This document shows, in pieces, positions 38,104 to 58,734 of a stretch of DNA of 64,000 nucleotides (positions within the stretch are counted from its first letter, which is position 1; each line of letters starts with the position of its first letter). The stretch is taken from NCBI RefSeq assembly GCF_055900595.2, contig NZ_CM148325.1. One strand, written 5' to 3'. Below the pieces are notes generated by a model. The model searched no databases. It was not told the origin of the DNA and worked only from the letters and a program-made list of their open reading frames with translations. The position numbers and the translations under genes are program-made.

Positions 38104-38121
38104 ATATGGGGTAACTACTTG

Positions 38122-38144: not shown

Positions 38145-38205
38145 ACAATACACATAGGCGATAAGCTTTGTTTTTGTTGCCTTTTTTATTGTTCATTTTT
38201 TATAG

Positions 38206-38227
38206 ATACCCCCAAAAGTACCCCCAT
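38206..38227. repeat. Putative integrase arm-type site (ATACCCCCAAAAGTACCCCCAT), left end of element
   Basis: 22-mer differs by 1 nt from the copy at 58713-58734 near the int start; each holds two TACCCCCA half-sites. Confidence 0.45.
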
Positions 38228-38345
38228 ATCTTTTTCCGCCCCTGAAATTTGGTTGTTATTCATACAGCATATCAGGCGGTAACGCTCTCCCTTTAACCCA
38301 CTTATTGTATGATAGTGCTATCCCACAATAAGGAATCAGCCAGCC

Positions 38346-38705
38346 ATGAGAATGACCAGCCGTAAAAAAGAGATACTCAGTTATTTTGAGCCGGATAACC
38401 TAGAATGGGTGACAGGTGAGATTGGTGCGCCGCCGTTCGATGTGTCGGGCGTGGCCTACCTGCTTCATGGCATGGTGTCGTTCGATAAGCGCCACCAGCT
38501 CGAATCAACCCGGCGCACACTGGAAAGCATGGTTGCTGGTGGACTGCTTGAGCGGGTGACAGTGTATGAATCGCGTCAGGTACGGCGCGGCGGTGAGACT
38601 AACGCAACGGTCGTGCGCTACGGTTTACCCGGTCACTGCGCTGTTATGCGCGATACTGGCGGCGCTGATAACGCAATATCAGGCGAATACATGCGGGTCA
38701 GTTAA
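38346..38705 (+). CDS. Hypothetical protein (119 aa)
   Basis: ORF only; no recognisable motif. Confidence 0.35.
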   Translation: MRMTSRKKEILSYFEPDNLEWVTGEIGAPPFDVSGVAYLLHGMVSFDKRHQLESTRRTLESMVAGGLLERVTVYESRQVRRGGETNATVVRYGLPGHCAVMRDTGGADNAISGEYMRVS

Positions 38706-39240
38706 GAGCCTGCAATCTGTCGTTAATGTTGTTCAGGTCGTAAACCCGGCGTTCAATATCCAGCATCAGGAAATCGTGGATCTCGGCCTGTTCAGGATTA
38801 TCAGACTCTCTGGCCTGTAAGAGCAATTCATTGTAACCATGCAAACCACCCGAATTTTCCGCCGGGGTAGTGCCCTTCCCGCGCAAACAGCTAACAGGCT
38901 GGATACTGGTATCATGTGTTTGCTTCTCCAGCACAACAAGGCAATCCCACCAGTCGCCAAAGTCATACGTGTAAACCAGCTTGTCACCCTCATTCTGGAG
39001 CGCCGCCCATAGTGGCGTGATTGCCGCGTTACCCATGCTTTCATCCTCACCCCATACGCGATACTCGCTACCTGGATCACCTTTACGCCCTTTCTCGAAC
39101 ATATACAGGTGTTCGTCATTCCAGCCAAAAGCTAACTGGATCACGGCATGAAGTTTACTAAAGGGGATTTGCTCTGGAACCAGCACACGCCGCCATATTG
39201 GTGGTTTGCTGTCTCGGATGGTTATCTTTATCTGGTACAT
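38698..39240 (-). CDS. pRiA4b ORF-3-like family protein
   Basis: N-terminus MYQIKITIRDSKPPIWRRVLVPEQIPFSKLHAVIQLAFGWNDEHLYMF is the recalled hallmark of this family. Confidence 0.6.
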   Translation of the reverse strand: MYQIKITIRDSKPPIWRRVLVPEQIPFSKLHAVIQLAFGWNDEHLYMFEKGRKGDPGSEYRVWGEDESMGNAAITPLWAALQNEGDKLVYTYDFGDWWDCLVVLEKQTHDTSIQPVSCLRGKGTTPAENSGGLHGYNELLLQARESDNPEQAEIHDFLMLDIERRVYDLNNINDRLQALN

Positions 39241-39283
39241 GCGTCGTGAACCAATAGTGTACGTTTAGGTGGGTATTTTTCTG

Positions 39284-39718
39284 CTACTGACCAGGATAGA
39301 GCTGATGTGCCGGGTCAAGCCAGACAATATGGAATACATTACCGATGAAAAATCCATGTATGCGACCATATTCATTGCGCGATATGGCAAATTGATAAGG
39401 TGTATAACTCTGAAACTGTTCATTCAAATGCTGAAATCCCTTAGGTTCAGATGTAGTTTGCCAATCAATCGGATGTGACTTCAACGAACCACCGCGATCG
39501 GTGGTGAACTCTCGTTCAGTCATAGTGGAAAGGTCTTTGAGGCGGTCTAACACCTTGCAAAAATAAACAGGATTCTGAGCGCTGAAAGTAAATTTCTCAT
39601 GCGCCGCATCGATATACCGAAAAGAAAAGTTGATGGTCGTTATGCCTGAACCTGTTCCCCCAGGCACTATTTTTGTTTGCGAGGGTGCAATCTTCGACGC
39701 CCTGATTCTTTTCGCCAT
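39284..39718 (-). CDS. Hypothetical protein (144 aa) coupled to the Panacea-domain gene; candidate toxin/effector partner
   Basis: ATG 2 nt after the upstream stop with no SD of its own (translational coupling); no recognisable motif. Confidence 0.5.
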   Translation of the reverse strand: MAKRIRASKIAPSQTKIVPGGTGSGITTINFSFRYIDAAHEKFTFSAQNPVYFCKVLDRLKDLSTMTEREFTTDRGGSLKSHPIDWQTTSEPKGFQHLNEQFQSYTPYQFAISRNEYGRIHGFFIGNVFHIVWLDPAHQLYPGQ

Positions 39719-39720
39719 AT

Positions 39721-40176
39721 TTAGGAAGCCATCGAACGATAAAACTCAGCCGTTACACTTTTATCAATAACATTCTTGCACGGCGCATCTGATGGAACCC
39801 CTTCACGGGCCTCCAGCCACGGCTTTTCTTGGTGCGTCATCTGCTCCAGCTCATAAGCTGTATAACCGCCAAATACCTCATAGATTTCCTTTAGATGCTT
39901 TGACACATTCGCAGGTAACTCAGGGCAGGCAATCTCTTCGTCTATTGAGCGCCATTTGTAATCTGCAAATCTGGTATACAAATCTCTGGCTACAGGGCCA
40001 TGTACCCATGCTTCAAACTTGTCAGCAACCAGTTCTTCGCCATCATTCAGCGCCATGAACCAAGCATCAGCATAGAACACCATTTTTTGCAGTTTCAGCG
40101 GCGTCATAACATCCCCATGCTCTTGAGCAAAGCAAAGCAGGTAATCCGCTACGCTGTTAAGGGTTGTAACTGCCAT
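39721..40176 (-). CDS. Panacea-domain (DUF4065, SocA/GepA-like) protein; putative antitoxin
   Basis: AGGAG SD before ATG at 40176 (MAVTTLNSVADYLL...); LKLQKMVFYADAWFMALNDGEELV...FEAWVHGPV is characteristic of the domain. Longer ORF 39721-40407 is probably upstream read-through. Confidence 0.6.
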   Translation of the reverse strand: MAVTTLNSVADYLLCFAQEHGDVMTPLKLQKMVFYADAWFMALNDGEELVADKFEAWVHGPVARDLYTRFADYKWRSIDEEIACPELPANVSKHLKEIYEVFGGYTAYELEQMTHQEKPWLEAREGVPSDAPCKNVIDKSVTAEFYRSMAS

Positions 40177-40497
40177 TATCCAATCTCCTGCCGTATGTTT
40201 TCGTCTATAACTGTCCACTACCGTTAATAATCGCATATAACCACGGGTATTGCCCATCGTAAAATGCCATTTAAAGATTCTGCGTGATGGCTCACCATCC
40301 ACCGCGCAAGATACCCGGTGCGTTTGGCTGATAATCCGCAATTTGGTTGAAACCGTCCTGGAAACCTCAAGTTTGGAAACCAGCGACTTGCATCGTAGCT
40401 TTGCCATTCGGCGGTCATAGTTACTGCTATATCCCTTTATTGGCGAGACCTGCGAGAGGTTTTGTTGTTCGAATATATAAAGGTGAATAAAGGTAAT

Positions 40498-40683
40498 CTA
40501 CCTGCGCGGCGCAGGCTTCTTCCACTGGTAGGCGGGTGATCGCATCATTTCGCGAAATTTGTCACGCCGGGCTATATTGGCATTAACTGAGCGTTCTATC
40601 TCCCGTTGATCTGCCGGGGTTAGCTGGTGGCCTTCGTGCTCCAGTTTGGCGGTGGTCAATAAAGCTATTTCGCGTGGTGTCAT
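40498..40683 (-). CDS. Hypothetical small protein (61 aa)
   Basis: ORF only; charged, helical. Confidence 0.25.
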   Translation of the reverse strand: MTPREIALLTTAKLEHEGHQLTPADQREIERSVNANIARRDKFREMMRSPAYQWKKPAPRR

Positions 40684-40910
40684 ACGTCATACCCTCTGGA
40701 AGGATGAAACACGCCCGGATTAAATTTCATTTTTCGCGGGTATAAAAAAACGATGGGGCGGGCAGTCCCGGATAGTCAGGGCTGTAGAGATTTGACTACC
40801 CCCTCCCCACTGGATTCAGGTTACTGCTATTCCGTTAAGCGCTGCTTACGGGGATAGCTGCGTTGTGATTTTGACCATTCAGGTCGCCGCTATTTCCTCA
40901 CCGATTGGGT

Positions 40911-40942
40911 GCTACGCGCGCGCGTACTTGTCCCGAAATACC
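40911..40942. repeat. Copy 1 of a GC-palindrome motif (GCTACGCGCGCGCGTACTTGTCCCGAAAT)
   Basis: One of three same-orientation copies (with 42303 and 42589); core TACGCGCGCGTA is a perfect palindrome. Confidence 0.5.
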
Positions 40943-40980
40943 AGAAACCGCCAGCCAGAGGATGATTTCCCTCTGGTGGT

Positions 40981-41262
40981 CTACCTTTGCCTCTTGCCGC
41001 CATTTAACCGGAAGGCGTTACCGTTCGGTTGCGCTATCCCCATGCGGTGTTGCGTTTCGGTAACAGCTTTATGCAGGTCGCCAAATTCCTCAACCTTCAC
41101 GGGCGGGCGCTTCACGTTCTCCAGACACGTTTCACGGCGGCGCTTTATCCATTCCCGATCATCGTCCTCGCTGCATAACAGCATGACTTCCATCCATCGT
41201 GCGGCAGCTCTCCGGTATAGCCCTTTTGACACCAGCTCTTCAGCTTTCCTGTCCCTTATCAT
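40981..41262 (-). CDS. PerC-family transcriptional activator-like protein
   Basis: 93 aa; MIRDRKAEELVSKGLYRRAAARWMEVMLL matches the conserved PerC/Pch N-terminal signature (recalled). Confidence 0.55.
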   Translation of the reverse strand: MIRDRKAEELVSKGLYRRAAARWMEVMLLCSEDDDREWIKRRRETCLENVKRPPVKVEEFGDLHKAVTETQHRMGIAQPNGNAFRLNGGKRQR

Positions 41263-41295
41263 TTCTGCCTCTCAGATTATATAGATAAGCAAAAA

Positions 41296-41420
41296 GGTGT
41301 TGGTTCAGTTGGTTCAGTTGGTTCAATTTGTAAAGATCGTTGTTTTTATTATGTTTTTTCTAAAATATTGAACCAACATCAACTCATTTTGAACCAACAC
41401 AGCCCAGCTCTGAACCAACA
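41296..41420. repeat. Iteron array I: 3 direct + 3 inverted GTTGGTTCA repeats around an AT-rich spacer (origin-like)
   Basis: GGTGTTGGTTCAGTTGGTTCAGTTGGTTCAATTTGTAAAG ... TTGAACCAAC, TTGAACCAACAC, TGAACCAACA; the first 40 nt are the exact reverse complement of 49541-49580. Confidence 0.7.
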
Positions 41421-41521
41421 ACACAGCGATAGCTTTGTGATTGGCCCGTTATTTTCTGGCTGATATTTGAGCGTATAACAGTGTTATACAGTGATATACT
41501 GTATGGATATTACTCACTGAT

Positions 41522-41977
41522 ATGGTCTTTGCAATGAGCAAATCTAATCTGGTCGCGTTCCGCATCCCATCTGAATTGCAGGATGAGTTTAATCGGTCTG
41601 TTCTCGCTTCTGGAGGGGATAAAACCTCCTGGCTTGTTGATGCGATTCGCATGAAGCTGGGACAGCCGGAAAAGTCTATTGATTCACGAATGTTTGGGCT
41701 GGTGGAGCGCATGGAAAAAGCTGCTGCGTCGCTTATTGCCGGAAAGCCGAACATCCCACCAAAGCCATATAACGAAACGGCAGTTATAAAGATCATTGCC
41801 GATACCATCCGACAGGGATTTGATAATGGGCGTGTGATAGCTGAACGGATCAATGAAGCAGGCTATCAAACAAAAGCTGGTAAAGCGTGGGATAAAGATA
41901 TTTACAGCGCGTGGAAGCGTCAGGGAAGCAATGCTGAAAAGTTAAAAGCGGTGATTGATTGTAAGGTCAGCGTATAA
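41522..41977 (+). CDS. Hypothetical protein (151 aa)
   Basis: ORF just downstream of iteron array I; no recognisable motif. Confidence 0.4.
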   Translation: MVFAMSKSNLVAFRIPSELQDEFNRSVLASGGDKTSWLVDAIRMKLGQPEKSIDSRMFGLVERMEKAAASLIAGKPNIPPKPYNETAVIKIIADTIRQGFDNGRVIAERINEAGYQTKAGKAWDKDIYSAWKRQGSNAEKLKAVIDCKVSV

Positions 41978-42056
41978 ACATGAGTGCCCATTGGAAAGCT
42001 GCTTGGGCCAATACCTTTATACACCAGCAGGTGGTGACGATAGGTGAGGATCAGGA

Positions 42057-42278
42057 ATGAAAGGCAGAACGCCACACATTGAACATCAAGCCAACCACTT
42101 CTCGGATGTTCGCAATGAGATGATTGCCATTCGCGGTGATATGCACGGCTTGGAGCGTCGAATTATTGATAAGATTGATGAAAATAGAGATAAGGCCAGT
42201 GAAAATCAAAAGTGGATCATCGGCCTGTTGATTTTATCAATTCTTATCCCGCTACTTATCGCATTGGTCACAAAATGA
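42057..42278 (+). CDS. Small membrane-anchored protein (73 aa), XhlA/holin-like architecture
   Basis: Charged N-terminal helical segment then C-terminal TM helix (WIIGLLILSILIPLLIALV). Confidence 0.4.
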   Translation: MKGRTPHIEHQANHFSDVRNEMIAIRGDMHGLERRIIDKIDENRDKASENQKWIIGLLILSILIPLLIALVTK

Positions 42279-42302
42279 ATATCCAATGTGTATGCTGTCG
42301 AT

Positions 42303-42332
42303 GCTACGCGCGCGTACTTGTCGCAAAATATC
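42303..42332. repeat. Copy 2 of the GC-palindrome motif (GCTACGCGCGCGTACTTGTCGCAAAAT)
   Basis: Same orientation as copy 1; one CG unit shorter. Confidence 0.5.
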
Positions 42333-42588
42333 AGGCAAAGGCCAGATTCAGAACGTCGTGATAACCACCAGCACAACATGAGATGTCATGTAACGCGATT
42401 TATCACGTCAGATACATGTGATTGGTGTACCCGCATAAAACATTGTCATAGCGCGTCCTGTGCGCATATACGCCGATAATCAACACATCACCACCACTCT
42501 GTCTCATGTAGAGAACACTTTTATGGTATCCCCCGCCATCGTGTGCGTACTGGTCGGACGCAGTTGCAAAAAATTTTGCAACTGATAC

Positions 42589-42619
42589 CCCTCGCGCGCG
42601 TACTTGTCTCGAAATTGGT
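42589..42619. repeat. Copy 3 of the GC-palindrome motif (CTCGCGCGCGTACTTGTCTCGAAAT), preceded by a TTGCAAAAAATTTTGCAA palindrome
   Basis: Third same-orientation copy; separate 18-bp inverted repeat at 42564-42581. Confidence 0.5.
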
Positions 42620-42822
42620 GTTTTGCTGTGGCAGTGATATCAGAAAAATCTTCCTGTTTCACATAAAGCGGATATGCGCGTACTGTAACGGCCCCATCAA
42701 CTGGGAGCGGATTTGAGCCCCGAATGTGTAGGCAATGTCACTTAACGTTTGTCGCATACCTTCCAGAAAAAGCGATTCATGAATAATAGGGGCATGAATG
42801 CCCGGCGTACCGGGCTTATTAG

Positions 42823-43521
42823 TTAATTTGGTGCTTTAGGGTCAACATTAAAAGTTATATCACCTTCTGTATTTTTCCCGGCATAGCTAGCGGCTATTCT
42901 CGCCAACCCTTTGTAATCAGCAATTCCATCAGACTGTTGCGAGACGACTGAGCTACCAACTTTCCATAACATATTAATCTGCCGATTATTGAGATAAGCC
43001 TTGGCATCAAACGACTGGAGTATCACCCCTGCGCCGTAGAACGTGTCCGTCACAGTTGTGTTATACGCGCCAGTAATTCCATAAGTAGGCGTATAAACTG
43101 TTGTTGCCGTTCCAGTGGTATTAGCTGTACCGTAGCCACCACCATAACTATTGAACGTGGTGTTCGAGTTTCCGTACGTTGTTGCTGAGCTCACACCAGT
43201 TTGCCCGTATATTGGGATGGTTACATTACGAGTATTTGAAATGGCCCCGCTTCTCAAAAAGTTCAAGAGAATTACCTGGTCAGCCAATTTTTCATCTTTA
43301 ACTTGTGTATATCCTTGGCTTGATAAACTGGCGGCTACTACCGTAGCTATTTGAGTGTATTCAATCTGTTTGGTGTTCCAAAGTTCTTGGCTTGCGGGGA
43401 TGATCAAGAACTTCTTACCGACAGATTGCCCGGAAGATAAAGCATTGACCGTTACTAACGGTTTTTGTACGCATCCAGCCAATAATGACAGGGATAATAT
43501 TAAAAGAAGATTTTTAATCAT
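42823..43521 (-). CDS. Lipoprotein, Gly/Thr/Asn/Tyr-rich
   Basis: Signal peptide with lipobox (MIKNLLLILSLSLLAGC); low-complexity central region. Confidence 0.6.
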   Translation of the reverse strand: MIKNLLLILSLSLLAGCVQKPLVTVNALSSGQSVGKKFLIIPASQELWNTKQIEYTQIATVVAASLSSQGYTQVKDEKLADQVILLNFLRSGAISNTRNVTIPIYGQTGVSSATTYGNSNTTFNSYGGGYGTANTTGTATTVYTPTYGITGAYNTTVTDTFYGAGVILQSFDAKAYLNNRQINMLWKVGSSVVSQQSDGIADYKGLARIAASYAGKNTEGDITFNVDPKAPN

Positions 43522-43671
43522 GATAATCTCACCTAAGAATTGCGTGGTTATAAATTATCATCACTGTAAGCGAATGTAAGCCACAGACTCGTAATGTGAT
43601 ATGGAATTTTGATAGTTGGCTCAATATCAGTATGCCGTCCTTGGCTATTATGGTTTTGTTAGTTAGAGCGT

Positions 43672-46398
43672 CTATTCCCATTCGCTAACATCTTTCATGC
43701 CACTGAGGGTAGCTACAATCCCGGCCCTTGTCAGTTTCACGAATTCTTCAGCCCCAACGGCATCACGAATTGCTTTCATGGCAATTTTATTGGCCGAAAA
43801 TCGTTTCTCTGCTGCGGCGATCGCTGCTGGTGATGCCCCTGCGCGCACTGCTTTTGTAGCTTCCTGAACGGCTTTCTCTATCGCATATCGACCACTTCTT
43901 GTCGCCCCAATCTTAGCCACAGCATTTCTTAGCGCGCCACCAGCAACCAAACCACTAATCGAACCAATTACACCACCGCCAAAGCCTCCAGCGATCGCAC
44001 CTGACTGTTGAACACCGTTCATAATCACGCCGACGATCTTTGGAAGGCCTGAATCGAGCGTTTTGAGAGCCTCAGTTGTTCTTCCCGTGCGCTCTACGTA
44101 TCGCTGCGGTCTGGTACTGGCTTTAGCGAGTACACCGAACTCTTTCATCATTCTACCGAGATCTGGCGCATGACGACTGATGGCGTTTACATTCTGCTGG
44201 GTCATGAGCTTGGCAAAATACTGGATACCTGACTCTTCACCGATTCCTCCCTTCTCTCCCTGCGCCACAGCATGCTGAAGAATAGATGCTATTGCAGGTT
44301 GGCGTTCTGCTTCCGGCAGCGCGGAGATAAGACGGTGAAAAGCTCCCGTTCCAGTGTTTGCGGATGCCTTAAGCGTATCGGCACCTTTTCTTACCATAGC
44401 GTCTGATGCGAGATCTCGACCAAAAACAGATTCGGCATTTTGTTTGGCGATAATGTAACTTTTAGAGAGATCGTTAGCTTTCTGCCATTCTGTGAGGAAG
44501 TTTCCTTTTTCAGCCATGATGCGCATGTCATCAGTGATAGCTCTGCGCATTTCTCCGGCAATCCGGGCGGCATTGGCCTTACCTGCCCGGGTGTTTGCTT
44601 GTTCAGCATCAGCAAACTTAGCACGCCATGCCTTCATCCCGTCGAAGGTTATGCCGCCACCTTGGTTGTTGGCAGCCTGAAACTGTTTCATCTCCGGGCT
44701 GAGTGGAACATTGGCTGCTTTTTCTGCTTGGACGACAGCCATTCCATTACTCATTTTCATCCTTTCGCGTGGCATCGTGCTTCGCAGTTCTGCCCATGCC
44801 ATATTCTCTGCTGTTTTCATATCACTGAGGCTCGCGATGATGCGCTCTTTAATTGCTGCGCTTTTTTCTGATGCGCTTCCAGACTCAGCACCGAAATCAG
44901 ACAACTGCTTATTCAACTTTGAGGATATTTCATTGAAGGCCGTAAGGTGAGCATCCTGAACATTCCCAGGAGTTGATGCCAGAACACCTTCTGCTTGGGC
45001 AATTCCACGACTACCTGAGCGCATTCCAGGCGTCAGGGTGTTGATATTAATACCAGTGATTTTCGCCGCCTTAGCGACATCATCTCTGACGTTTGATGCC
45101 TGCGATGCGATATGCTCTCGGCCTACGGCAGAACGCGCTGCTTTCGATACATCATTGGCGGTTTCCAGAGTATTTGCTGCCCCTAACACATGGCCTGATT
45201 GATTTGTATTACTCCGCAATACATCTCGCATTACGTCACTGGCTGTCTGTCCGCTCTTTATTAAAGCGCGTGCTCCTAGCGATCCTGCTAGGCCAATACC
45301 TGTCTCTTTTGCTAGGTCTTCTGGGCTGATCTGCCCGTTCTTTTGGGCGTTCACCAATGTACCTGGCAGGTTTTCTGCCAACATACTAGCCACCTTTGTG
45401 GCCGCACGTTCAGCACGTGGAGCGTTGGCAACTGAAGAAGCTGCGGTAGCTGCCTTTCCTGCACCTAATCCTGTAATAAGGTAAGGTGCTAGCTGCTCAC
45501 CAGCCTGCGCGTATGGATCTGTAGGTTGGTCTACTGGGCGAAAGACAGGTGATATGGGCGTGTATGTGCCATCACCCACACCAAGCTTCTGAGCTGCCCA
45601 TGCTCCGGCTGATTGCGCCGCATTGACTACCCCCACGCCTGCGTCCATTACATCAAACGGTATATTAGCAATCCCTCTGGCCATCTGCTCTGGCGCAGCT
45701 TTCAGTCCTGGCGAAAGATATTCCATCTCAGGATTAAGGTTAGACTTGGCTACTTGCTGCTGCGGTTCCCCGGCATTTTCATCGGCGAGAAACTGAGCTC
45801 TTTTCTGCTCCCATGAACTGGCTGTTGGTAGTCCTGCTTCTATGTTCTTAAATTGCTGACGTTTTGCTTCCCATGCAGAAATATCTCCCACCTGAGAGAT
45901 TTCTTTATCAAGCTCTGAGTAGTCAGGCTGCTGAAGATTGCGATGTTGACTGGTTTGTGCAAACTGCAAGATTTCACTGTCATCAGGGATTATTCCGGCA
46001 TCTGCAAATTTACTTACGTAATTAGCCGTTTCATCTGGCAGTGTAGATTTACCGTTTCTGACGGCATTAATACGAGCATAGCCAGAATTATACCCAGCCA
46101 ATGCCATACCTATATCACCAAATCGCTTCATTCCTTTATTGAGATGGTTTGCTGCGATATCCATTTGCTTTTCAAATGGCAGTGAGCGCGGATCTGTTCC
46201 ACGATAACCAGCATCACTCATTACTGAGGGCATCAGTTGAGCAAATCCTCTAGCTCCTTTCGGTGACTCGGCACTTCCGTTACCACTAGATTCATTGCCA
46301 ACTAATGTTTCCATCGTCCCTGATGGGAAACCATATTTTTCATCGAGATGACGGGAATAGGCTTTCTGTTTTTCTGTCAGTTGTGCCATCATTGCCAT
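43672..46398 (-). CDS. Large protein with N-terminal lytic transglycosylase (SLT) domain; podovirus gp16-like internal virion/ejection protein
   Basis: 908 aa; SLT motifs (GARGFAQLMPSV ... ALAGYNSGYARI) then long helical region and C-terminal hydrophobic segment. Confidence 0.65.
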   Translation of the reverse strand: MAMMAQLTEKQKAYSRHLDEKYGFPSGTMETLVGNESSGNGSAESPKGARGFAQLMPSVMSDAGYRGTDPRSLPFEKQMDIAANHLNKGMKRFGDIGMALAGYNSGYARINAVRNGKSTLPDETANYVSKFADAGIIPDDSEILQFAQTSQHRNLQQPDYSELDKEISQVGDISAWEAKRQQFKNIEAGLPTASSWEQKRAQFLADENAGEPQQQVAKSNLNPEMEYLSPGLKAAPEQMARGIANIPFDVMDAGVGVVNAAQSAGAWAAQKLGVGDGTYTPISPVFRPVDQPTDPYAQAGEQLAPYLITGLGAGKAATAASSVANAPRAERAATKVASMLAENLPGTLVNAQKNGQISPEDLAKETGIGLAGSLGARALIKSGQTASDVMRDVLRSNTNQSGHVLGAANTLETANDVSKAARSAVGREHIASQASNVRDDVAKAAKITGININTLTPGMRSGSRGIAQAEGVLASTPGNVQDAHLTAFNEISSKLNKQLSDFGAESGSASEKSAAIKERIIASLSDMKTAENMAWAELRSTMPRERMKMSNGMAVVQAEKAANVPLSPEMKQFQAANNQGGGITFDGMKAWRAKFADAEQANTRAGKANAARIAGEMRRAITDDMRIMAEKGNFLTEWQKANDLSKSYIIAKQNAESVFGRDLASDAMVRKGADTLKASANTGTGAFHRLISALPEAERQPAIASILQHAVAQGEKGGIGEESGIQYFAKLMTQQNVNAISRHAPDLGRMMKEFGVLAKASTRPQRYVERTGRTTEALKTLDSGLPKIVGVIMNGVQQSGAIAGGFGGGVIGSISGLVAGGALRNAVAKIGATRSGRYAIEKAVQEATKAVRAGASPAAIAAAEKRFSANKIAMKAIRDAVGAEEFVKLTRAGIVATLSGMKDVSEWE

Positions 46399-47708
46399 CC
46401 CTTAAGTTTTGCCTGATAGTAACTTTCCGGCAGATAGCCATGTGCGGTCACATAATCCTTAACCAGTGAAGGATCCTGCAACAGCATTTTGGTATCAGTT
46501 TCTTCGTCCTTAGATTTGGTTACAGGAATACCGAGCCCGGCAATCTGTCGTTTCTGCATTCGAATAATTACGTCCTGCGCTTTATTCAACTCTCGCAAAA
46601 ATGCCTCATTGCTGGTTGCTGACTTAATGCCATTTTGAGATTGCATAAGGGCAGCCCTTTCCCCTTCGGTTGGGTTAGAGCCAAAAGTCCCTTTGAGGCT
46701 AGGCAGAATAACCTTTAGGTTGTATTCATCAGCTTTGGCGCGTAGGCTTCGTGTGTCTTCTGCTACATCAGGAAGGAATCCAAACCCCAGCGTCAGGGGG
46801 TTATAGTTCTGCGAGCGGGTAACGGCCGAAGGATGTTTCCCTACAATTCCCGCCAGTTCATGACCCACTTCAAGCGCAGAGTTCAAGGAGTCGATGTTAC
46901 CTGCAACAGTATTAATTTTATCGTTCATCTTCTCCACTTTCGCCTGCTGTATCTTGCTCAGTTCAGCATTGAGCTTGTCTCTCTCGATGTCATTTTGAGC
47001 ACGTCCAAGTCGTGCTTTCAGAACCATTTCTCTCGTGCGTAGTTGGTTATCGGATAGGACTTTGAACTGCTCCATATCGAGACGTCGATTACCCTGTTCC
47101 GCATTAACCTGAGCATTATATGCGGATGTATCTGCGTTCTGCTGTGCAATGCTCTGCCCTTGCTGCTTCTCTTGAACACTAAAGTAACTATTTGGATCAG
47201 CATGGAGGTGGATGAGGTCAGTGATTCTGTTGAATTCCTGTGGGTCATTCTGCCAAGACTGATAAACCTCTTCAGCAGGAAGACCAAATCGCTGTAATAC
47301 TGGATTTGCCTGCTGAATGGCCTTCTGCATGGTCAGTGGATCTCCAGTTTGTGACGCAAGACGCAGATTCATGGCAGCGTCAGCGGTCTGTCGATTTTGC
47401 TCAGCATCAATGAATCCCATCTGTTTTTGAGAATCAGCCATAAACTGGGGATACTGGGCCATTAACTTCTGCACGCCAACACGATCATTATTAGCTACCG
47501 CACTACCCAACCGTGCCTGATATTCTTTTAACTGCTGGGAAATTTGCGCCTGCTGATTAATCTCAGCAACGCCTCTTAGCCCCTGTAGCGCCATTAAACC
47601 TACGTTTGGCTGCTGCTGATACTGCACAGGCTGAGGAACGGAAGAACGAGGAGCATTATCATTTTGCGGTGCCATGCTAGGCAGCCCGCCAAGTTGCCAT
47701 GTCGCCAT
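46389..47708 (-). CDS. Gln-rich coiled-coil protein (439 aa); gp15-like by size and position
   Basis: Overlaps neighbours by 1-10 bp; no enzymatic motif. Confidence 0.5.
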   Translation of the reverse strand: MATWQLGGLPSMAPQNDNAPRSSVPQPVQYQQQPNVGLMALQGLRGVAEINQQAQISQQLKEYQARLGSAVANNDRVGVQKLMAQYPQFMADSQKQMGFIDAEQNRQTADAAMNLRLASQTGDPLTMQKAIQQANPVLQRFGLPAEEVYQSWQNDPQEFNRITDLIHLHADPNSYFSVQEKQQGQSIAQQNADTSAYNAQVNAEQGNRRLDMEQFKVLSDNQLRTREMVLKARLGRAQNDIERDKLNAELSKIQQAKVEKMNDKINTVAGNIDSLNSALEVGHELAGIVGKHPSAVTRSQNYNPLTLGFGFLPDVAEDTRSLRAKADEYNLKVILPSLKGTFGSNPTEGERAALMQSQNGIKSATSNEAFLRELNKAQDVIIRMQKRQIAGLGIPVTKSKDEETDTKMLLQDPSLVKDYVTAHGYLPESYYQAKLKGWQ

Positions 47709-48385
47709 TAGAATCCAAGCCCCCCAACAAGACCAATAAGCCCACCACCAATAGCGCCGGCCGCAGTTCCTATTCCAGGAACAACGGAACCAAGTTGCGC
47801 ACCCGCTAAAGCGCCTGATGCTGCCCCACCAATACCACGCGCAAGACTGGATGGCTGCTGCGCCTGACCTGCACGAATAGCGCCAAGCCCCTGCAAGAGT
47901 TGTCCGGTATTATTGGCGTAGTTTTGCCCTGCCGTTGCCTGCCCTGATGCCGCATTCATCCCGACATTTAGCAGGTTTCCATAATTTTGCATTTGCCCAC
48001 TGAGCCAATTGTTATAAAGCATGGGCGCAATGGAAGATAACTGGTTACTGGTAGCTGTTGAGCCAAGCCCCCCGGTAGCTTCTGCTGAGACAAGGTTCTG
48101 ATAACGGGCCTGATCTGCCTGTGTTTTATATAAACCAGAACCAAAGAAATCATTCGCGGCTTTATTCTGCCCTTCCAGAGTCATCAGTCCTTGTAGTTGT
48201 TGTAAAGCAGGCAATCCGACTTCTGCATACGGCTTGAGATTATTCATCACCGTATTCCACTGCTCGCGCTGCAAATCAATTGCCTGCTGCTGGGCCTTCG
48301 CCTGAGCTTTAGAGGCACCACCATCACCGCCTTTTTCGTATACGGCACGATTGAGATGTTTATGAGCTATGTGGGTAATTAACAT
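47708..48385 (-). CDS. Protein with C-terminal glycine-zipper membrane segment (225 aa); gp14-like
   Basis: C-terminus GIGGAASGALAGAQLGSVVPGIGTAAGAIGGGLIGLVGGLGF. Confidence 0.5.
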   Translation of the reverse strand: MLITHIAHKHLNRAVYEKGGDGGASKAQAKAQQQAIDLQREQWNTVMNNLKPYAEVGLPALQQLQGLMTLEGQNKAANDFFGSGLYKTQADQARYQNLVSAEATGGLGSTATSNQLSSIAPMLYNNWLSGQMQNYGNLLNVGMNAASGQATAGQNYANNTGQLLQGLGAIRAGQAQQPSSLARGIGGAASGALAGAQLGSVVPGIGTAAGAIGGGLIGLVGGLGF

Positions 48386-48840
48386 TCGCTGAATTCCTTA
48401 TATTGTTGCCGAGTTAACTGATAAAGCGTTACGCCGACGGGTTTACCACATCTGATATAAGCATCATCAAGGTGACCAACACGGGTAGCGCCAAGCAAAC
48501 GGATAATTGCCCGTCCGTATTTGGTGGTGTCAGGAACCATGGTAATGCTGTTAAGGAATGGTGAGTTTTCGAGAAGCCATTTGCAGAATAATCGATGCCC
48601 TTGCAGTGCATATTCACCACGGAATCCGGGGTCGTACACCGCATGGCATTCAACAACGCTATGCCAGAAGTTACGCACTTCATGAACGCCAGCCAGCACT
48701 AATCCTTCGTAGATGCCGAGATATACCGCATCAGGCTTGATGTAGTACGTGTGCCCCGGCTCAACAATATTTTCGGTATTGCCTGGCTCGTTAAGAAAGG
48801 CCTGTAATCGCACAGGGTTATCAATAAATTTTAGTTCCAT
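48379..48840 (-). CDS. Hypothetical protein (153 aa); first gene of the four-gene module (gp13-like position)
   Basis: ORF with coupled start; no recognisable motif. Confidence 0.5.
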   Translation of the reverse strand: MELKFIDNPVRLQAFLNEPGNTENIVEPGHTYYIKPDAVYLGIYEGLVLAGVHEVRNFWHSVVECHAVYDPGFRGEYALQGHRLFCKWLLENSPFLNSITMVPDTTKYGRAIIRLLGATRVGHLDDAYIRCGKPVGVTLYQLTRQQYKEFSEC

Positions 48841-48850
48841 GCGATGCCAT

Positions 48851-49580: not shown

Positions 49581-49602
49581 TTTTCTACGCACATGAAGAA
49601 GC

Positions 49603-52717: not shown

Positions 52718-53051
52718 GAGAACCTCCCGCTACAGTTGCGCCCATGTCATTAACCATGCTTTGCCATATCTCACGCCCGACGTCAGTCAATCCGTCCTTA
52801 GTGACGCAACGATCAAGAAGCTCGATCCCCACGGTTTCCCACTGCGGGTAGAACACTTTCATGGCTGCCAGTGTGTAGCTATCGATCAGGCTGCGAACGC
52901 CTTTTACTCCATTGACGATTTCCACACGGACGGCCTCGCCGTCCGCATCAACCATGAAATAGTCCCCGCCGCTGGTGGAGGTAATGTGGTTATACAGTGC
53001 CGACGCATACTTATTTGCCAGCGCATTCAGTCGGAAATTTTTAGTAATCAT
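52710..53051 (-). CDS. Hypothetical protein (113 aa)
   Basis: ORF, coupled to neighbours. Confidence 0.4.
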   Translation of the reverse strand: MITKNFRLNALANKYASALYNHITSTSGGDYFMVDADGEAVRVEIVNGVKGVRSLIDSYTLAAMKVFYPQWETVGIELLDRCVTKDGLTDVGREIWQSMVNDMGATVAGGSHA

Positions 53052-53061
53052 GGTTCCATCC

Positions 53062-53664
53062 TCAGTGCGTCACTGGTTCCGCTGGCATGCCGTTTTCATT
53101 CAGTTCAGCTATAAAGCTGTTGTGAAGTTCAGCAAGCGTTTCACGACCAAATGGAGTCAGTGCTCCTTGTTCCACATCCATCATGGCTCTGTAGAAAATG
53201 ATGGCGCGTTCTGTGCCAGACTCGATGCCAAAACGTTCTATCATCGCGCCCTCAATGTTGTTTGCCATAGCGAGGCGCTCTGCTACTGGATACAGCGGCA
53301 TGGCGACGATGCCGTTGGAATAAACAGCCACTTCGGAAGGGTTGCCAGTATCATCAATGATGCTGACAGTGCCGTTTTCCTCTCTCATTTCCAGCATGAA
53401 TACTGTTGCGATCAGCCATCTCCACATAATGACGTTATGCTGTGATGTGTAATCGAAATATCCCTGGTTGCCGCCATCGGCTATAGCGAGATGTATTGAC
53501 ATACCTTCATCTGGTTTATCGTCATAATCCCCGGCATCCAGACGATTTACGGCATCAATATATGAGACGGCCTCAACGCGTTCTGTCATGCCATCGTTGC
53601 TGCGGTACATGATGTTTACGCCGTCAGGCGTTGCTTCTGCATGGAAAGTTAAGAAATTATTCAT
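53062..53664 (-). CDS. Hypothetical acidic protein (~200 aa)
   Basis: Start taken at MNNFLTFHAEAT (GAGGCGA SD); the longer 235-aa ORF overlaps the upstream gene. Confidence 0.4.
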   Translation of the reverse strand: MNNFLTFHAEATPDGVNIMYRSNDGMTERVEAVSYIDAVNRLDAGDYDDKPDEGMSIHLAIADGGNQGYFDYTSQHNVIMWRWLIATVFMLEMREENGTVSIIDDTGNPSEVAVYSNGIVAMPLYPVAERLAMANNIEGAMIERFGIESGTERAIIFYRAMMDVEQGALTPFGRETLAELHNSFIAELNENGMPAEPVTH

Positions 53665-53878
53665 GTTTCGCCTCGCCTGAATGATTCTGTAACTCATATT
53701 TGCCCAACAATTCGTCTGCTTCCTGAATAGCTTCTGGTACGCCATTGAGCAGTGACATAACCGCGCCAATCATTAACTTGTCTCTGTTGCTGGGGCTGGC
53801 CCCTTCAAGCCAGAACCCTAAAACAGTCTGAACCTGTTCGATGCGACATTGTGCTTCAATGAGCTGGATGTTGGTCAT
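53657..53878 (-). CDS. Hypothetical small protein (73 aa)
   Basis: ORF, coupled. Confidence 0.35.
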   Translation of the reverse strand: MTNIQLIEAQCRIEQVQTVLGFWLEGASPSNRDKLMIGAVMSLLNGVPEAIQEADELLGKYELQNHSGEAKHE

Positions 53879-54138
53879 TTCGCACTCTCCGCATCGATTA
53901 AACTGATATCTATCAGAGAGGTAACTTTTTGTAGCCAGCTAGTGATTACTGTCGCCTGTTCCCCTCCCACCGATGGAAGAATCTCATTCATCACATGAAG
54001 CAGACCTGTGCGCGCCCTGGTAAGCCGTTCAGTCGTGCGATCTGCAAGAGTGAATGTGTCTGGATATGGCTCTTCACGGCTCAGCAATGATTCAATTTCC
54101 AGCTCACACGGATGACGATAAATTAAGTTGATATTCAT
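53875..54138 (-). CDS. Hypothetical small protein (87 aa)
   Basis: ORF, coupled. Confidence 0.35.
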   Translation of the reverse strand: MNINLIYRHPCELEIESLLSREEPYPDTFTLADRTTERLTRARTGLLHVMNEILPSVGGEQATVITSWLQKVTSLIDISLIDAESAK

Positions 54139-54329
54139 TTTTCACCACCAAGAATTACCAGCTCTGCACGAGCATCGTTAACCAAAGATGAGCACGCTTT
54201 AATCGCATCCACGACATCAGCAGCGTCCATTTCTTCAGCCGAAAGACTGACAGCAACCAGGACAGCCGCTGCTTGCTCGATTAATTGAAGTGCGGACGTA
54301 AGTCGAGGGGCATTAATTGAGTTATTCAT
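54135..54329 (-). CDS. Hypothetical small protein (~64 aa)
   Basis: Start taken at [10 protein letters not shown]; Ala-rich helical. Confidence 0.3.
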   Translation of the reverse strand: MNNSINAPRLTSALQLIEQAAAVLVAVSLSAEEMDAADVVDAIKACSSLVNDARAELVILGGEK

Positions 54330-55389
54330 TGGTTGCCCCCGTTTTTCCTGGCATTTCGCCACCTTCCAGCAGGAAATGAACGTCACGAACGGCGAGATCC
54401 AATATCGCGAGTAACGCCTTCAGTCTTTCGTCTCGTGAGGGAGAGTTGCTCACCAGAATGTCGTTAATCACTTCTGTCAGTGTGATGATCTGGCTTGTGC
54501 GTTCGAGGGGATCCATATGCACATCGTAGGTTTTAATCATGTGCCACCTCCATGCGGATACGACCAGCAAAAAAGCAGACGTGATCGCGCACCAGAGAAC
54601 GGCGAGCATCGCGTTCAGACTCGGCAGCAATATGATGAATTTTGGCGGTAATTGTCGGGCAATCGCGGCGAACTGCGGCGATAATCCAGATAAATTGCGG
54701 TTTTTGGGTAGGGGTAGTAGCCAGCATGTGGCAGCCTCCTTGTACTGGGAATTCTTCCCACCACCGGAGCTGCGAAACTCGCTGGTGGTGGACTGAACAG
54801 AGTTCGCAGTACCGGCGTACAAGGAAACCGGCCAGCCTTTCGGCTGCCCTGTCCAGCCCACCATAATTTTGCAAGCGACGCGGATTATAACCACATCACT
54901 GAAAAAAGTGTGAGTCTGGCTAACGGCACAAAAAAAGACGCTCGGCGCGTCATGTGTCGCCTCGTACATTTCCGGGCTGCGAAACCCGGCACCCGTTTTA
55001 TGAGGTGCCTTATAACCATAAACCGTGTTGCCGCATAACGGCAAGCTCTTTTTTATGGACTCCGAAAACTCACTATTGGAAGAACCAGAAGCACAGTACA
55101 TCGCGCTCATTTCGTTAACGTCACGCGCGTGGACGAATGTTTTTGTGGAGTCACTACACGAGCGGAAGACATCATCTACGACCAGAAATTTTCTGGCGCA
55201 GCCGCTGACCTTCTCAAGGCTAATATCATCGCCCGAGATTTCTGGTATGGTTAAGGCATCCGTTCCGGCCACCAGCAAATGATAAACTTTGCTTGTATCT
55301 GCTGTATTAATGCCTGACTTTGCCGTCATATTTCTGGATTTTGGCGACATACCAGCCAGTGAAAATGTCTTCTTCTGGATGGGTATCAT
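54322..55389 (-). CDS. Uncertain ORF (355 aa); may be two genes, with an internal start at 54540 behind a strong GGAGGTG SD
   Basis: Continuous frame, but upstream two-thirds is low-complexity and a well-placed SD+ATG at 54540 suggests a separate 73-aa product ([19 protein letters not shown]...). Confidence 0.3.
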
Positions 55390-55565
55390 TGGTTAACCTC
55401 CGCGAACTCCTTCATGAAACGCGCCAGCGGTTGTACGCATGGCGATTGATACCCGTCGCGATAAAACGTCACTCGGTTGTGAGACACGCTTTCGACAGTA
55501 ACGAGTGCTCCGTGGGCATCTTTGTAGCGTTTTTGAGGTTGTGGTGTTCCTGTCGGCTTAAACAT
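55386..55565 (-). CDS. Hypothetical small protein (~59 aa)
   Basis: Start taken at MFKPTGTPQPQ with GGAGG SD; the longer 88-aa ORF overlaps the upstream gene. Confidence 0.35.
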   Translation of the reverse strand: MFKPTGTPQPQKRYKDAHGALVTVESVSHNRVTFYRDGYQSPCVQPLARFMKEFAEVNQ

Positions 55566-56391
55566 GGACCGCCTCCAGACGCTTGGCGAGCCAGCGTTGC
55601 GACAGGCGGGTGAGTTCTCCTTTACGCTGCTCATATTCCATGCCCATATCAATTAACGTGATATTGGTGCTTTCGAGATATGAGAGGTGCTCAAGCTGTT
55701 CTGCGTTCATATGGTCGCGAGGTTCGCCAGAATAGCCATTTATCCGCGCCCACTGTTTAGCAGTTAGCCCACCAAGAACGATACGAGAAATCATATTGCT
55801 CTCGTTTGTGTAGTGGTGTTGCTGCGTCGTTTTACCCATCTCGGCACGGGCCATATTCAGCGCATCGCACATTGGCTTAAAGTTGTTTGCGGCACTGATA
55901 CGGGCTTTTAGCTGGCGACGATAGCGGGCGGCGATTTCAGGCACGCTACGCTGTAATTCTTCCTCGCACTGGATGAAATAACGGCGGATAGCGCGCCCCT
56001 GATCATTGCGTTCGATCATTGCCAGTTCTTTCGCCATTCCGACACTTAACAGATAGTCTTTGCCGGGTCTGCCAGACTGCTTAATCTTGCTGTAAGCCGC
56101 GTCATTCGGGCTTTTCCCCAAATTTGGGGAAATTGTTTTATGGACTGAGTAATCGTGCCCAATGGTGAAGTCATATTCAGAGATGCGATCAGTGATCCAT
56201 GTAGAGAAGTCTTTTCCCACGCCCAACGCTTTGTGTAACGCTTTTGCGCTAACAATATTGGTTTCACGCCCACCGATATGACCAGGAATAACCGGGACAA
56301 TTGCGGCAAATTCATTACCGTTAATTGTGCCCAGAGAGGCGTTCAGATGAGGGGCAGCCTCAGAAATTAATCTGCTTTTTTCGATGTTCAT
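55558..56391 (-). CDS. Phage antirepressor-like protein (AntA/KilAC-type)
   Basis: 277 aa; LHKALGVGKDFSTWITDRISEYDFTIGHDY resembles the AntA N-terminal region (recalled); basic C-terminal helical region. Confidence 0.45.
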   Translation of the reverse strand: MNIEKSRLISEAAPHLNASLGTINGNEFAAIVPVIPGHIGGRETNIVSAKALHKALGVGKDFSTWITDRISEYDFTIGHDYSVHKTISPNLGKSPNDAAYSKIKQSGRPGKDYLLSVGMAKELAMIERNDQGRAIRRYFIQCEEELQRSVPEIAARYRRQLKARISAANNFKPMCDALNMARAEMGKTTQQHHYTNESNMISRIVLGGLTAKQWARINGYSGEPRDHMNAEQLEHLSYLESTNITLIDMGMEYEQRKGELTRLSQRWLAKRLEAVHV

Positions 56392-56403
56392 TTTCAGTCT
56401 CCG

Positions 56404-56835
56404 TTAGGCGGCGTTAAACGCGTCCGGGTAGAGTTTCAGAATGTCGGCAATTTCCTGCTGAGAAAGTCCGTTGTGATCATTTATGTTCGCAAGATGGTTA
56501 ACATGAGTGATCACTTTCAGAACATCACCACGGCAGGAGAAACGGTAGCGAAGGTGTGTTCCGATACCATCAGGATTCTTTTCGTCGATACGCTCCAGAG
56601 TGATTCCAAGCTGGCGTTCTAACTCTGTTGCATAGTTACGACCAGAAGACAGACGGCAGTAGCGAAGAATGTCATTTTCTGTCCATCCCTCTATACCAGT
56701 ACGCAGCATATAGACTCTGGCACGATGCTTTTTCGGTGTGCGCTTTGGTGCTTGAAGGGATTTTGTAAGGGGCGTAACATCAGATACACGAATATCTGAA
56801 TTAGCCGCCTGTAATGGGCGGTTTTTCTTTTCCAT
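56404..56835 (-). CDS. Hypothetical protein (143 aa)
   Basis: ORF between alpA and the antirepressor-like gene; its stop overlaps the alpA start. Confidence 0.4.
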   Translation of the reverse strand: MEKKNRPLQAANSDIRVSDVTPLTKSLQAPKRTPKKHRARVYMLRTGIEGWTENDILRYCRLSSGRNYATELERQLGITLERIDEKNPDGIGTHLRYRFSCRGDVLKVITHVNHLANINDHNGLSQQEIADILKLYPDAFNAA

Positions 56836-57038
56836 CAGGCCACCTCGTCTCTAGATTCTAATATACACTTCTCAATCCATTCATCTATTTCAGACTCAAC
56901 AAAAGCAATTGCCCGACTTCCAATTTTTACCTGTTTAGGGAACCTCCCCTGACTAATAAGACGATAAATCCATGCTTTGCTATAACCAGTTCGCCTTTGA
57001 ACTTCAGAGAGACGAATTAATGAATTGTAATTAGCCAT
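56835..57038 (-). CDS. alpA: AlpA-family phage transcriptional regulator / excisionase-like protein
   Basis: 67 aa; LIRLSEVQRRTGYSKAWIYRLISQGRFPKQVKIGSRAIAFVESEIDEWI is the AlpA HTH signature. Confidence 0.85.
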   Translation of the reverse strand: MANYNSLIRLSEVQRRTGYSKAWIYRLISQGRFPKQVKIGSRAIAFVESEIDEWIEKCILESRDEVA

Positions 57039-57466
57039 TTATTAATATCCTGTACTAATGACGCAATAACCCCCTCCTGCAACGAATGGCGAGAGTTTTA
57101 TTTGCGTCAAATGTCGAATACGCCAAAGACCACAATATGAAAAACATATTGCGGTCTTTTATAAAAGATAGTCAGATTGTTTTGGTTTGTTTGCTCCACA
57201 AGGGTAGAGCTACCCTGCATTTCGGCAGGATCACGCTATTAGGCGTGACATCCAGTAGTTTTAAAGAACAATTGCGCTTTGTCAGCGCCAAAGCCTGTTA
57301 AAGAACATTCCGCTTTGTCAGCGACGTAGAAGGCTCAATACACCTTCGTTTATAAAAGAGCGATTGCCCTTCTCCAGGGCTAACTGTTAAATAGCAATCC
57401 TCTGTGAGTTTTTATCAATCTACTCCCCTATACTTTAGTAAACCTCTGTATACTTGTCCAGTTGTT

Positions 57467-58681
57467 TCATGCGTGTTTTTCAAACACCATATGCACCACA
57501 TTTCCGCCATGCTCGAGAGAATCCATATAGTCGGCATACCATTGAAGCATCTCCCGCCTTCCATCCAGATATTGCGCATGGTTGTATGTGCCACGAATTG
57601 AGTTCTTATCAACGTGAGCGAGCTGCGTTTCTATCCACGCGGTGTTATAGCCCTGCTCATGCAAAATCGTACTCATAGTGTGCCGGAACCCATGACCAGT
57701 TACACGTCCAGCGTAGCCAATGCGCTTAAACACTTGGTTTATGCTGGCCTCGCTCATTGTTTTCCTTGGATCATTGCGCCCGGGAAACATAAGAGGGTAA
57801 TTGCCTGTTATTTCTCTAATCTTCCCAATAAGCGAAAGAGCCTGCTCAGACAATGGCACAATATGAGGCCGCCGCATTTTCATACGTGAAGCGGGTATCT
57901 CCCAGATAGCCTTGTTGAAATCAATTTCATCCCATAATGCGCCACGTAGTTCGCCAGTCCGCAAGCCGGTGATAATCAGTAGACGAGCCGCCATAACAAC
58001 CAATGCGCTTCCTGAGTAACTGGACAATGCCTTGAAAAAATCAGGTAATTCTTTGGCTGTAAGGAAAGGGTAATGATTAGATTCATGGCCTTGCATCGCG
58101 CTAGTAAGGTCTGGTGCAGGGTTATACTCTGCGCGACCAGTGACTATTGCATAGCGGAAAACTTCCCCGCACCGTTGCCTCACTTTTTTGGCTTTTTCTG
58201 TAGCACCGCGCCCCTCGATGCGACGCAGCACATTCAGAAGTTCAAGTGGTTTGATTTCGGCGATGGGTTTTTTGCCAATGTAAGGGAACACATCTTTGTT
58301 GAAGGCTTCGAGGATGTCTGAAGCATAACCAGCAGACCATTTTTTTAATTTGCTGCTGTGCCACTCAAGGGCAATATCTTTGAAGGTGTTGTTTAACTGC
58401 GTTTCCCGGGCAATCTTTTCCTCTCGTTTCGCTTCCATCGGATCGATACCACCAGCGATACCTCTTTTCGCATCTTCACGTTTTGCCCGAGCATCGGCTA
58501 GAGTAACCTCAGGATAAACACCTAGTGCCAATAGCTTCTCTTTACCAGCTACACGATATTTAAGTCGCCAGTATTTACCTCCATTAGGTTTTACCAAGAG
58601 ATACAAACCGCCACCATCGGCCAGCTTGTAAGCCTTCTCTTTTGGCTTGGCTGTGTCTATTTGACGGGCATTGAGTTTCAC
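57467..58681 (-). CDS. int: P4-type tyrosine integrase
   Basis: 404 aa; N-terminal MKLNARQIDTAKPKEKAYKLADGGGLYLLVKPNGGKYWRLKYR; catalytic region HGFRHT...(Y); directly downstream of thrW, same orientation. Confidence 0.9.
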   Translation of the reverse strand: MKLNARQIDTAKPKEKAYKLADGGGLYLLVKPNGGKYWRLKYRVAGKEKLLALGVYPEVTLADARAKREDAKRGIAGGIDPMEAKREEKIARETQLNNTFKDIALEWHSSKLKKWSAGYASDILEAFNKDVFPYIGKKPIAEIKPLELLNVLRRIEGRGATEKAKKVRQRCGEVFRYAIVTGRAEYNPAPDLTSAMQGHESNHYPFLTAKELPDFFKALSSYSGSALVVMAARLLIITGLRTGELRGALWDEIDFNKAIWEIPASRMKMRRPHIVPLSEQALSLIGKIREITGNYPLMFPGRNDPRKTMSEASINQVFKRIGYAGRVTGHGFRHTMSTILHEQGYNTAWIETQLAHVDKNSIRGTYNHAQYLDGRREMLQWYADYMDSLEHGGNVVHMVFEKHA

Positions 58682-58712
58682 TTGGGGGTACCTCCACTAA
58701 ACCGAACAGCAA

Positions 58713-58734
58713 ATACCCCCATAAGTACCCCCAT
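58713..58734. repeat. Putative integrase arm-type site (ATACCCCCATAAGTACCCCCAT), int-proximal end
   Basis: Direct repeat of 38206-38227 (1 mismatch); an inverted GTACCCCCAA copy at 58683-58692. Confidence 0.45.

Follow-up and report, generated by a model that had tools for sequence, protein, structure and literature searches.

A 20.7-kb island integrated in the tRNA-Thr gene thrW carries two matching 22-bp direct repeats just inside its ends, which raises the question of what these repeats are for. The island (~38127–58863) lies within the 64 000-nt stretch of contig NZ_CM148325.1 (NCBI RefSeq assembly GCF_055900595.2) analysed herein, hereafter the window, and encodes a tyrosine integrase (Int) of the P4/IntS family. 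Judged from sequence, the repeats are very probably composed of arm-type binding sites (boxes) for the element's own integrase, a reading that we place at roughly 85 %. The initial annotation of this DNA had proposed such a role, and finds support in the conservation of the boxes across related integrase modules, in the annotation of P4, and in the layout of the KplE1 and HK620 attachment regions.

Both repeats are found on the + strand in the same orientation, with the consensus ATACCCCCA[A/T]AAGTACCCCCAT; the individual copies read ATACCCCCAAAAGTACCCCCAT (38206–38227) and ATACCCCCATAAGTACCCCCAT (58713–58734). The window holds no further match at ≤3 mismatches, and 100 dinucleotide-preserving shuffles of it, used to gauge chance expectation at the same threshold, likewise returned none. 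Each 22-mer consists of two tandem copies of the 8-mer TACCCCCA with a period of 12 bp. This 8-mer occurs seven times in the window against 1.01 expected, with five of the seven confined to the two arms when an inverted copy at the int start is included; the lone copies at 1558 and 45628 look like chance occurrences. The features that make up the two ends of the element are as follows.

38127–38144: distal core (attR core), AATGGTGCGATAATAGGA, 1 nt shorter than the tRNA copy through a deletion.
38206–38227: distal-arm 22-mer, with P1/P2-like tandem boxes at 38207–38214 and 38219–38226, reading TGGGGGTA on the int-coding (−) strand.
57467–58681, − strand: int, encoding a P4/IntS-type heterobivalent tyrosine integrase of 404 aa with Arm-DNA-bind_3, Phage_int_M and Phage_integrase domains.
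58683–58690: inverted box P′3, whose sequence on the int-coding (−) strand is TACCCCCA; it immediately follows GGAGG and stands 1 nt away from the int GTG codon (58681).
58713–58734: int-proximal 22-mer, with tandem boxes P′1 (58726–58733) and P′2 (58714–58721), 32–53 nt upstream of the int start.
58845–58863: tRNA-proximal core (attL core), AATGGTGCCGATAATAGGA, which overlaps the thrW 3′ end and forms a direct repeat with 38127–38144.
58847–58922, − strand: thrW, a tRNA-Thr (CGT) gene called by ARAGORN, the integration target.

The limits of the island follow from the recurrence of the thrW 3′ end, in the form of the duplicated core AATGGTGC(C)GATAATAGGA, at 38127–38144; both 22-mers fall inside this duplication. 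Their placement, which the initial annotation had described as symmetric, is so only roughly, as 62 nt separate the distal core from the start of the first box (61 nt to the 22-mer), whilst 111 nt separate the end of the last box from the tRNA-side core (110 nt from the 22-mer). The third, inverted half-site that had been noted beside the int start codon is likewise present: the int-coding strand of the int-proximal arm has the sequence ATGGGGGTActtATGGGGGTAtttgctgttcggtttagtGGAGGTACCCCCAaGTG, which sets P′3 between the Shine–Dalgarno sequence GGAGG and the GTG codon. The integrase combines an Arm-DNA-bind_3 domain with core-binding and catalytic domains, as in the P4/IntS type (DUF4102, 'IntSXT' subgroup). 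Integration is at a tRNA 3′ end with a core at both ends, int lies beside the tRNA-proximal end with its start 166 nt from the end of the tRNA, and the boxes follow the P4 pattern of one tandem pair per arm and an inverted box at the int start.

Conservation of this arrangement was evaluated in 87 modules, comprising 80 integrase loci from Enterobacterales assemblies (one genome per species, 63–98 % identity), the window, four further loci (L002–L005), P4 and HK620. Two tandem boxes and an inverted box were detected automatically in 85 of the 87, compared with 84 of 4350 shuffled upstream regions (1.9 %); P4 is the 86th module with boxes, and was missed because its annotated start codon lies upstream of the homologous one. 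The initial annotation staked its reading on the motif not being absent from elements with the same integrase, and with boxes in 86 of 87 modules it withstands that comparison. Of the 85 detected modules, 83 have a 12-nt period and 80 an inverted box ≤4 nt from the start codon. The boxes of L071 are wholly different (TGTGTATA) but keep the same layout. On these sequence comparisons, the P4 arm-site layout is nearly universal in this integrase clade in Enterobacterales.

The tRNA genes beside the 80 loci represent six targets, Thr(CGT), Arg(CCT), Arg(UCU), Gly(CCC), Ser(UGA) and SeC, thrW included, and at least seven tRNA target genes occur across the 87 modules (tRNA-Leu in the case of P4). 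Where an upstream tRNA was called, its end lies 161–188 nt from the int start, except in L081 (300 nt). The distances from tRNA 3′ end to int start codon in the 80 loci (L007–L086) fall into clusters of 163–167 and 174–176 nt, about one helical turn apart, whichever tRNA is concerned, which suggests strict helical phasing of the attL arm.

The opposite arm is conserved also. A distal pair is found 57–62 nt inside the distal core in L002, L005, L011, L040 and L049; that of L050 was located upstream of the copy at the tRNA end. A search with the last 18 nt of each tRNA at ≤2 mismatches returned no distal core for the 80 loci; most elements exceed the 10-kb flank, and cores are shorter or contain an indel. 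Searching for tandem box pairs instead recovered four distal arms (L011, L040, L049 and L050), each with its own box type. Distances to the core were taken from explicit matches because the longest common substring mostly picked the boxes themselves. L002, from O104:H4, has a 96 % identical Int protein and different cargo, with boxes on both arms and a distal spacer that is unrelated in sequence yet of nearly the same length; L003, in thrW of Escherichia coli, has kept the int-proximal boxes. In L004 and L005, whose Int proteins are 72–73 % identical to that of the window, all copies read TGGGGGCA/TGCCCCCA, those of the L005 distal arm included, and L005 is a true P4-like satellite.

These comparisons bear on whether the repeats might be replication-origin iterons, packaging signals or transposon-like terminal repeats. 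The element does encode a TOPRIM-DUF927 primase, P4 has short repeats at ori and crr, and the repeats lie near both ends; the boxes, however, travel with int rather than with cargo, being present in L004, which has no primase, and in L002, whose cargo is unrelated. The P4 ori and crr repeats are other sequences in other places, and the spacing of the boxes to the core is conserved. Such an origin for the repeats is therefore barely credible, and transposon or insertion-sequence termini were rejected as the repeats share one orientation and are set 62 and 111 nt inward of the core, and the element contains no transposase.

Positions 7–8 of the boxes vary amongst the modules. The three int-proximal boxes read TA/TA/TA in 40 modules, CA/CA/CA in 29, CC/CT/CC in nine and are mixed in three. 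In nearly all of the nine elements with a distal pair, its type is that of the element's own int-proximal boxes (TA in the window, L002, L011, L049, L050 and L088; CA in L005, L040 and P4), the exception being one int-proximal box of L040, which reads GGGGGTA. Box type in turn tracks residue 50 of the Int N-terminal domain (codon at ~58532–58534 in the window): amongst 69 distinct N-domains, Leu accompanies TA boxes (GGGGGTA) in 34, Arg accompanies CA boxes (GGGGGCA) in 25 and Lys accompanies CY boxes (GGGGGCY) in nine, with one exception. Met or Ile occupies this position in elements with other boxes (L059, L071 and HK620), and residues 29 and 53 co-vary as well; all three lie on the β-sheet in an AlphaFold2 (AF2) model (pLDDT 87.8). 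The association spans 28 catalytic-domain clusters and is uncoupled both from cluster and from tRNA target, with one cluster of ≥88 % identical catalytic domains holding both box types. It is tentatively suggested, with the odds somewhat against it, that residue 50, in the fourth β-strand, reads base 7 of the box, and that the N-domain and arm boxes are swapped as a matched cassette amongst integrases of other core and tRNA specificities; the pairing may be Leu–T, Arg–C (G on the opposite strand) and Lys–C. Only the concordance of the distal arms, in nine elements and over 6–20 kb, escapes the caveat of linkage raised below. If true, this would provide a simple rule for how P4-family integrases recognise their accessory sites, and a route to orthogonal variants; if causal, it would be a rare case of a simple specificity rule for arm-type recognition.

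The covariation of boxes with Int also helps to decide whether the boxes might instead be bound by AlpA, a winged-helix protein of the Xis/TorI kind. Its gene lies just downstream of int, and the protein is homologous to TorI (38 % identity to HK620 TorI over 39 aa), making it a candidate directionality factor and satellite master regulator. A second family of repeats, with the motif RTCTAC, is located between the core and P′1. The relevant features are as follows.

56835–57038, − strand: alpA, encoding a 67-aa protein of the Phage_AlpA family (Pfam E-value 7e-20).
58741–58766, − strand: block 2, three sites in 10-nt phase, GTCTACtaaaGTCCCTcaaaATCTAC, directly upstream of P′1 and over the presumed −35.
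58814–58829, − strand: block 1, two sites in 10-nt phase, GTCTACtaaaGTCTTT, candidate AlpA sites.

A 12-nt period, presence on both arms and an inverted copy are the pattern of the Int sites in KplE1, where the TorI sites are a separate 5-bp motif found on the int side only. By these measures it is the RTCTAC family, and not the 22-mers, that resembles Xis, TorI or AlpA sites: it is TorI-like, with its 10-nt phase and blocks of two and three, whilst the 22-mers track Int. The RTCTAC blocks were thus assigned as candidate directionality-factor sites because they correspond to the TorI blocks of KplE1 in number and placement, and because AlpA is homologous to TorI. Their motif shifts in concert amongst elements (TCTAC, TCAAC, or TCCGT in L071) and loosely follows AlpA type. 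The type of the 22-mer boxes, by comparison, follows the Int N-domain residue and not AlpA, as in L046, L048 and L056, where CA boxes occur alongside an AlpA like that of the window, and many box-bearing loci lack any close homologue of AlpA within 5.5 kb. Binding of the 22-mer boxes by AlpA rather than Int is consequently improbable.

With Int as the protein that binds the boxes, the attachment region would work as follows. In this heterobivalent integrase, the catalytic and core-binding domains would act on the 18–19-bp core (thrW 3′ end), and the N-terminal β-sheet domain (residues ~1–90) would bind the TGGGGGTA boxes. In the excised circle, attP would measure ~250 bp, with the order on the int-coding strand of two tandem boxes, 62 nt, the core, 111 nt, two tandem boxes, ~23 nt, the inverted box and int. 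By bridging arm and core sites, Int would assemble the intasome for integration into thrW. Excision would involve Int together with the AlpA-type sites between core and P′1, with AlpA bending the int-side arm. The consensus for integration host factor (IHF), WATCARNNNNTTR, is found in neither arm, its single match (38112–38124) lying outside the element.

Int probably also represses its own synthesis, given that P′1–P′3 extend over the presumed −10 and transcript start as well as the ribosome-binding site and start codon. Such autoregulation, based here on position, agrees with the published behaviour of P4, KplE1 and PAI I536. P4 Int is reported to repress Pint via its N-terminal part (Piazzolla 2006, as summarised in PMC2951348), IntS and TorI have been shown experimentally to repress the intS promoter in KplE1 (PMC2951348), and autoregulation has also been described for the P4-like integrase of PAI I536 (PMC7286903). 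Homology with P4 and KplE1 would place the int promoter of the window with its −10 over P′1.

An effect on int expression could also be exerted at the level of RNA, with box 2 and the inverted box 3 pairing in the 5′ leader of int so as to hide the Shine–Dalgarno sequence, in which case the int-proximal boxes would mainly be an RNA element and the distal pair unrelated. A hairpin of −23.5 kcal/mol that includes the Shine–Dalgarno sequence is predicted, and T/C substitutions in boxes 2 and 3 compensate each other amongst relatives; furthermore, Vis has been proposed to control P4 int post-transcriptionally, as quoted in PMC2951348, which summarises repression of P4 int by both Int and Vis. The z-score of the fold is, however, only −1.6, with 12 of 200 shuffles folding as well, and pairing needs two boxes, yet five co-vary, two of which are 20 kb away. 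The hairpin cannot explain these distal boxes, as they lie outside the int mRNA. We thus give a primarily RNA-based role little chance of being correct, and regard the hairpin as a possible extra layer rather than an alternative.

A number of observations weigh against the assignment of the boxes to Int, or against parts of it. L081 has no recognisable boxes, and L021 combines Arg50 with TA boxes. The association of residue 50 with box type may in part reflect linkage, as the N-domain coding region and the int-proximal boxes are ≤300 bp apart. A σ70 consensus scan of the window found no promoter upstream of int, and the hexamers that in P4 span the first box (TTGAAA-N18-CATAAT) have only a poor counterpart (TCAAAA-N18-TACTTA); for these reasons autoregulation rests on position and analogy. 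Finally, the capacity of boxes 2 and 3 to pair as an RNA hairpin allows for a possible post-transcriptional role.

Two further sequences in or near the arms deserve mention. The distal arm contains a hairpin resembling an intrinsic terminator (38156–38182). In addition, int itself harbours a box-like tandem pair, AGAGGTATCGCTGGTGGTATCG, at 58444–58465 (codons ~73–79, KRGIAGGI), which uses rare AGG and GGG codons. The same intragenic pair is near-perfect (AGGGGTATCGCTGGGGGTATCG) in most of the closest relatives (e.g. L002, L003, L007–L009 and L011–L015), and the P4 record likewise annotates one intragenic arm repeat (3621–3632), the position of which differs from that in the window.

Beyond its ends, the element has the gene set of a phage-inducible chromosomal island of the EcCIMP1 type. 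According to Pfam, the genes downstream of int encode an AlpA-family protein, an AntA antirepressor, Ash and the TOPRIM-DUF927 primase, providing the int-alpA-antirepressor-primase set at satellite size; no capsid, terminase or lysis genes are present, and helper dependence is taken from PMC11773190. Further along the island are homologues of P22 ejection proteins.

43672–48840, − strand: ejection-protein homologues in a P22-type cluster, made up of the four genes below.
43672–46398, − strand: 908-aa SLT-domain protein.
46389–47708, − strand: gp20-like injectosome translocase.
47708–48385, − strand: gp7 homologue.
48379–48840, − strand: DUF2824 (P22 gp14-like) protein.

Within this cluster, 396 bp (~48352–48747) are 91 % identical to the helper phage Kapi1; the ejection-type genes of EcCIMP1 are labelled only 'DNA transfer' or possible morphogenesis (PMC11773190). 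The same island is carried at thrW by 48 complete E. coli genomes, and proA/proB adjoin thrW in matching genomes. The accessory end of the satellite (38346–40407) differs from that of EcCIMP1 of strain MP1. It contains a PRiA4_ORF3 protein (38698–39240) and a Panacea (SocA-like antitoxin) domain protein (39721–40407) with a 144-aa partner (39284–39718), a possible toxin–antitoxin or defence pair.

To the left of the distal core, 37849–38103 is what remains of the 3′ part of a lambda-type (intF-like) integrase belonging to an adjacent island, and this remnant ends 23 nt from the core; the thrW locus is therefore a tandem array of islands. The islands in the array share one common core and have unrelated integrases. 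The last ~70 bp of the intF-like remnant is kept even in strains without the rest (avian pathogenic E. coli, APEC, E19025), and a box-like ATATGGGGTA is located at 38104–38113, in the foreign, lambda-type arm. The neighbouring island contains a 999-aa open reading frame (33950–36949, + strand) with no Pfam match, beside an IS1 transposase (33135–33638) and the integrase remnant; similar regions in other E. coli carry AbiE toxin–antitoxin and reverse-transcriptase genes. A Vat toxin island beside thrW satellites (L005, 8300–8480 and 1290–1375; L088, 8213–8560) harbours a truncated Arm-domain integrase, with decayed upstream tandem boxes, a retained inverted box and a single box at the far end, which fits a loss of constraint after inactivation of int.

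With regard to known systems, the element is, by sequence, a variant of the published satellite EcCIMP1 from E. coli MP1. The two belong to the same family and occupy the same site, their Int proteins (IntS_1) are 100 % identical, and 16.7 kb is shared at 98.9 % identity, with both 22-mers present. The distal accessory regions differ, MP1 having other genes and a second alpA where the window has the Panacea-domain pair. In EcCIMP1, IntS_1 and alpA are needed for excision, circularisation and transfer by the P22-like helper Kapi1 (PMC11773190); that paper leaves att and arm sites undescribed, the term 'attL' being absent from its text.

The same five-box layout is annotated in the P4 record (NC_001609) as 'attP arm sequence repeat' features, with tandem 12-mers 53 nt beyond the core, tandem 12-mers 112 nt away on the int side and one inverted copy at the int start (3915–3926). 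Spacing is similar to that in the window, both on the int side (112 versus 111 nt) and on the far side (~53 versus 62 nt). The P4 box, TGGGGGCA, is one base apart from TGGGGGTA, with C in P4 and T in the window at base 7, and P4 integrase, which has the same domain architecture, has Arg at the position equivalent to Leu50. The target of P4 is the tRNA-Leu gene leuX rather than thrW, and P4 depends on P2, whereas the window element is an EcCIMP1-type satellite of a P22-like phage. The repeats under study thus fall into the class of P4-type attP arm repeats, which has been known for a long time (Pierson & Kahn 1987, cited via PMC7286903), and occur in an already published satellite.

Amongst phages, the nearest integrases are of the IntS type of HK620, Sf6, CUS-3 and KplE1 (49–50 % identity). 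The KplE1 (CPS-53)/HK620/Sf6 module, at argW, has the same attL order as the window, namely core, directionality-factor blocks of two and three, −35, P′1 over −10, P′2 and one or more inverted boxes by the start codon; the opposite arm has a tandem pair. In KplE1 the P′ boxes are IntS arm-type sites, P′1 overlaps the −10 of PintS and the TorI blocks of two and three lie between the core and the −35 (PMC2951348). The attP of HK620 has a window-like layout with the box GGGTAAAAT instead of TGGGGGTA, a tandem period scored at 11 nt and two inverted boxes. In KplE1 and HK620 the directionality factor TorI is encoded on the other side of attP, whereas AlpA of the window is encoded downstream of int.

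With lambda Int, which uses the arm sites P1, P2 and P′1–P′3, the principle is shared: the integrase is heterobivalent with a β-sheet N-domain, the arm sites flank the core and attP is ~240 bp. The N-domain of the window integrase shows weak structural similarity to 2WCC and 1Z1B, but the lambda N-domain is of a different family, Arm-DNA-bind_3 having an extra strand and helix (PMC8138268), and the number and orientation of sites differ too. The lambda arm sites do not overlap the int promoter, as lambda int is transcribed towards attP. Set against these systems, the locus reveals no new mechanism, and the covariation of residue 50 with box type is possibly the sole new point. What the comparison does define is the attL, attR and attP anatomy of EcCIMP1-type satellites at thrW, with its core, five Int boxes and five candidate AlpA sites, which should help in annotating island boundaries and in planning experiments on excision or integration.

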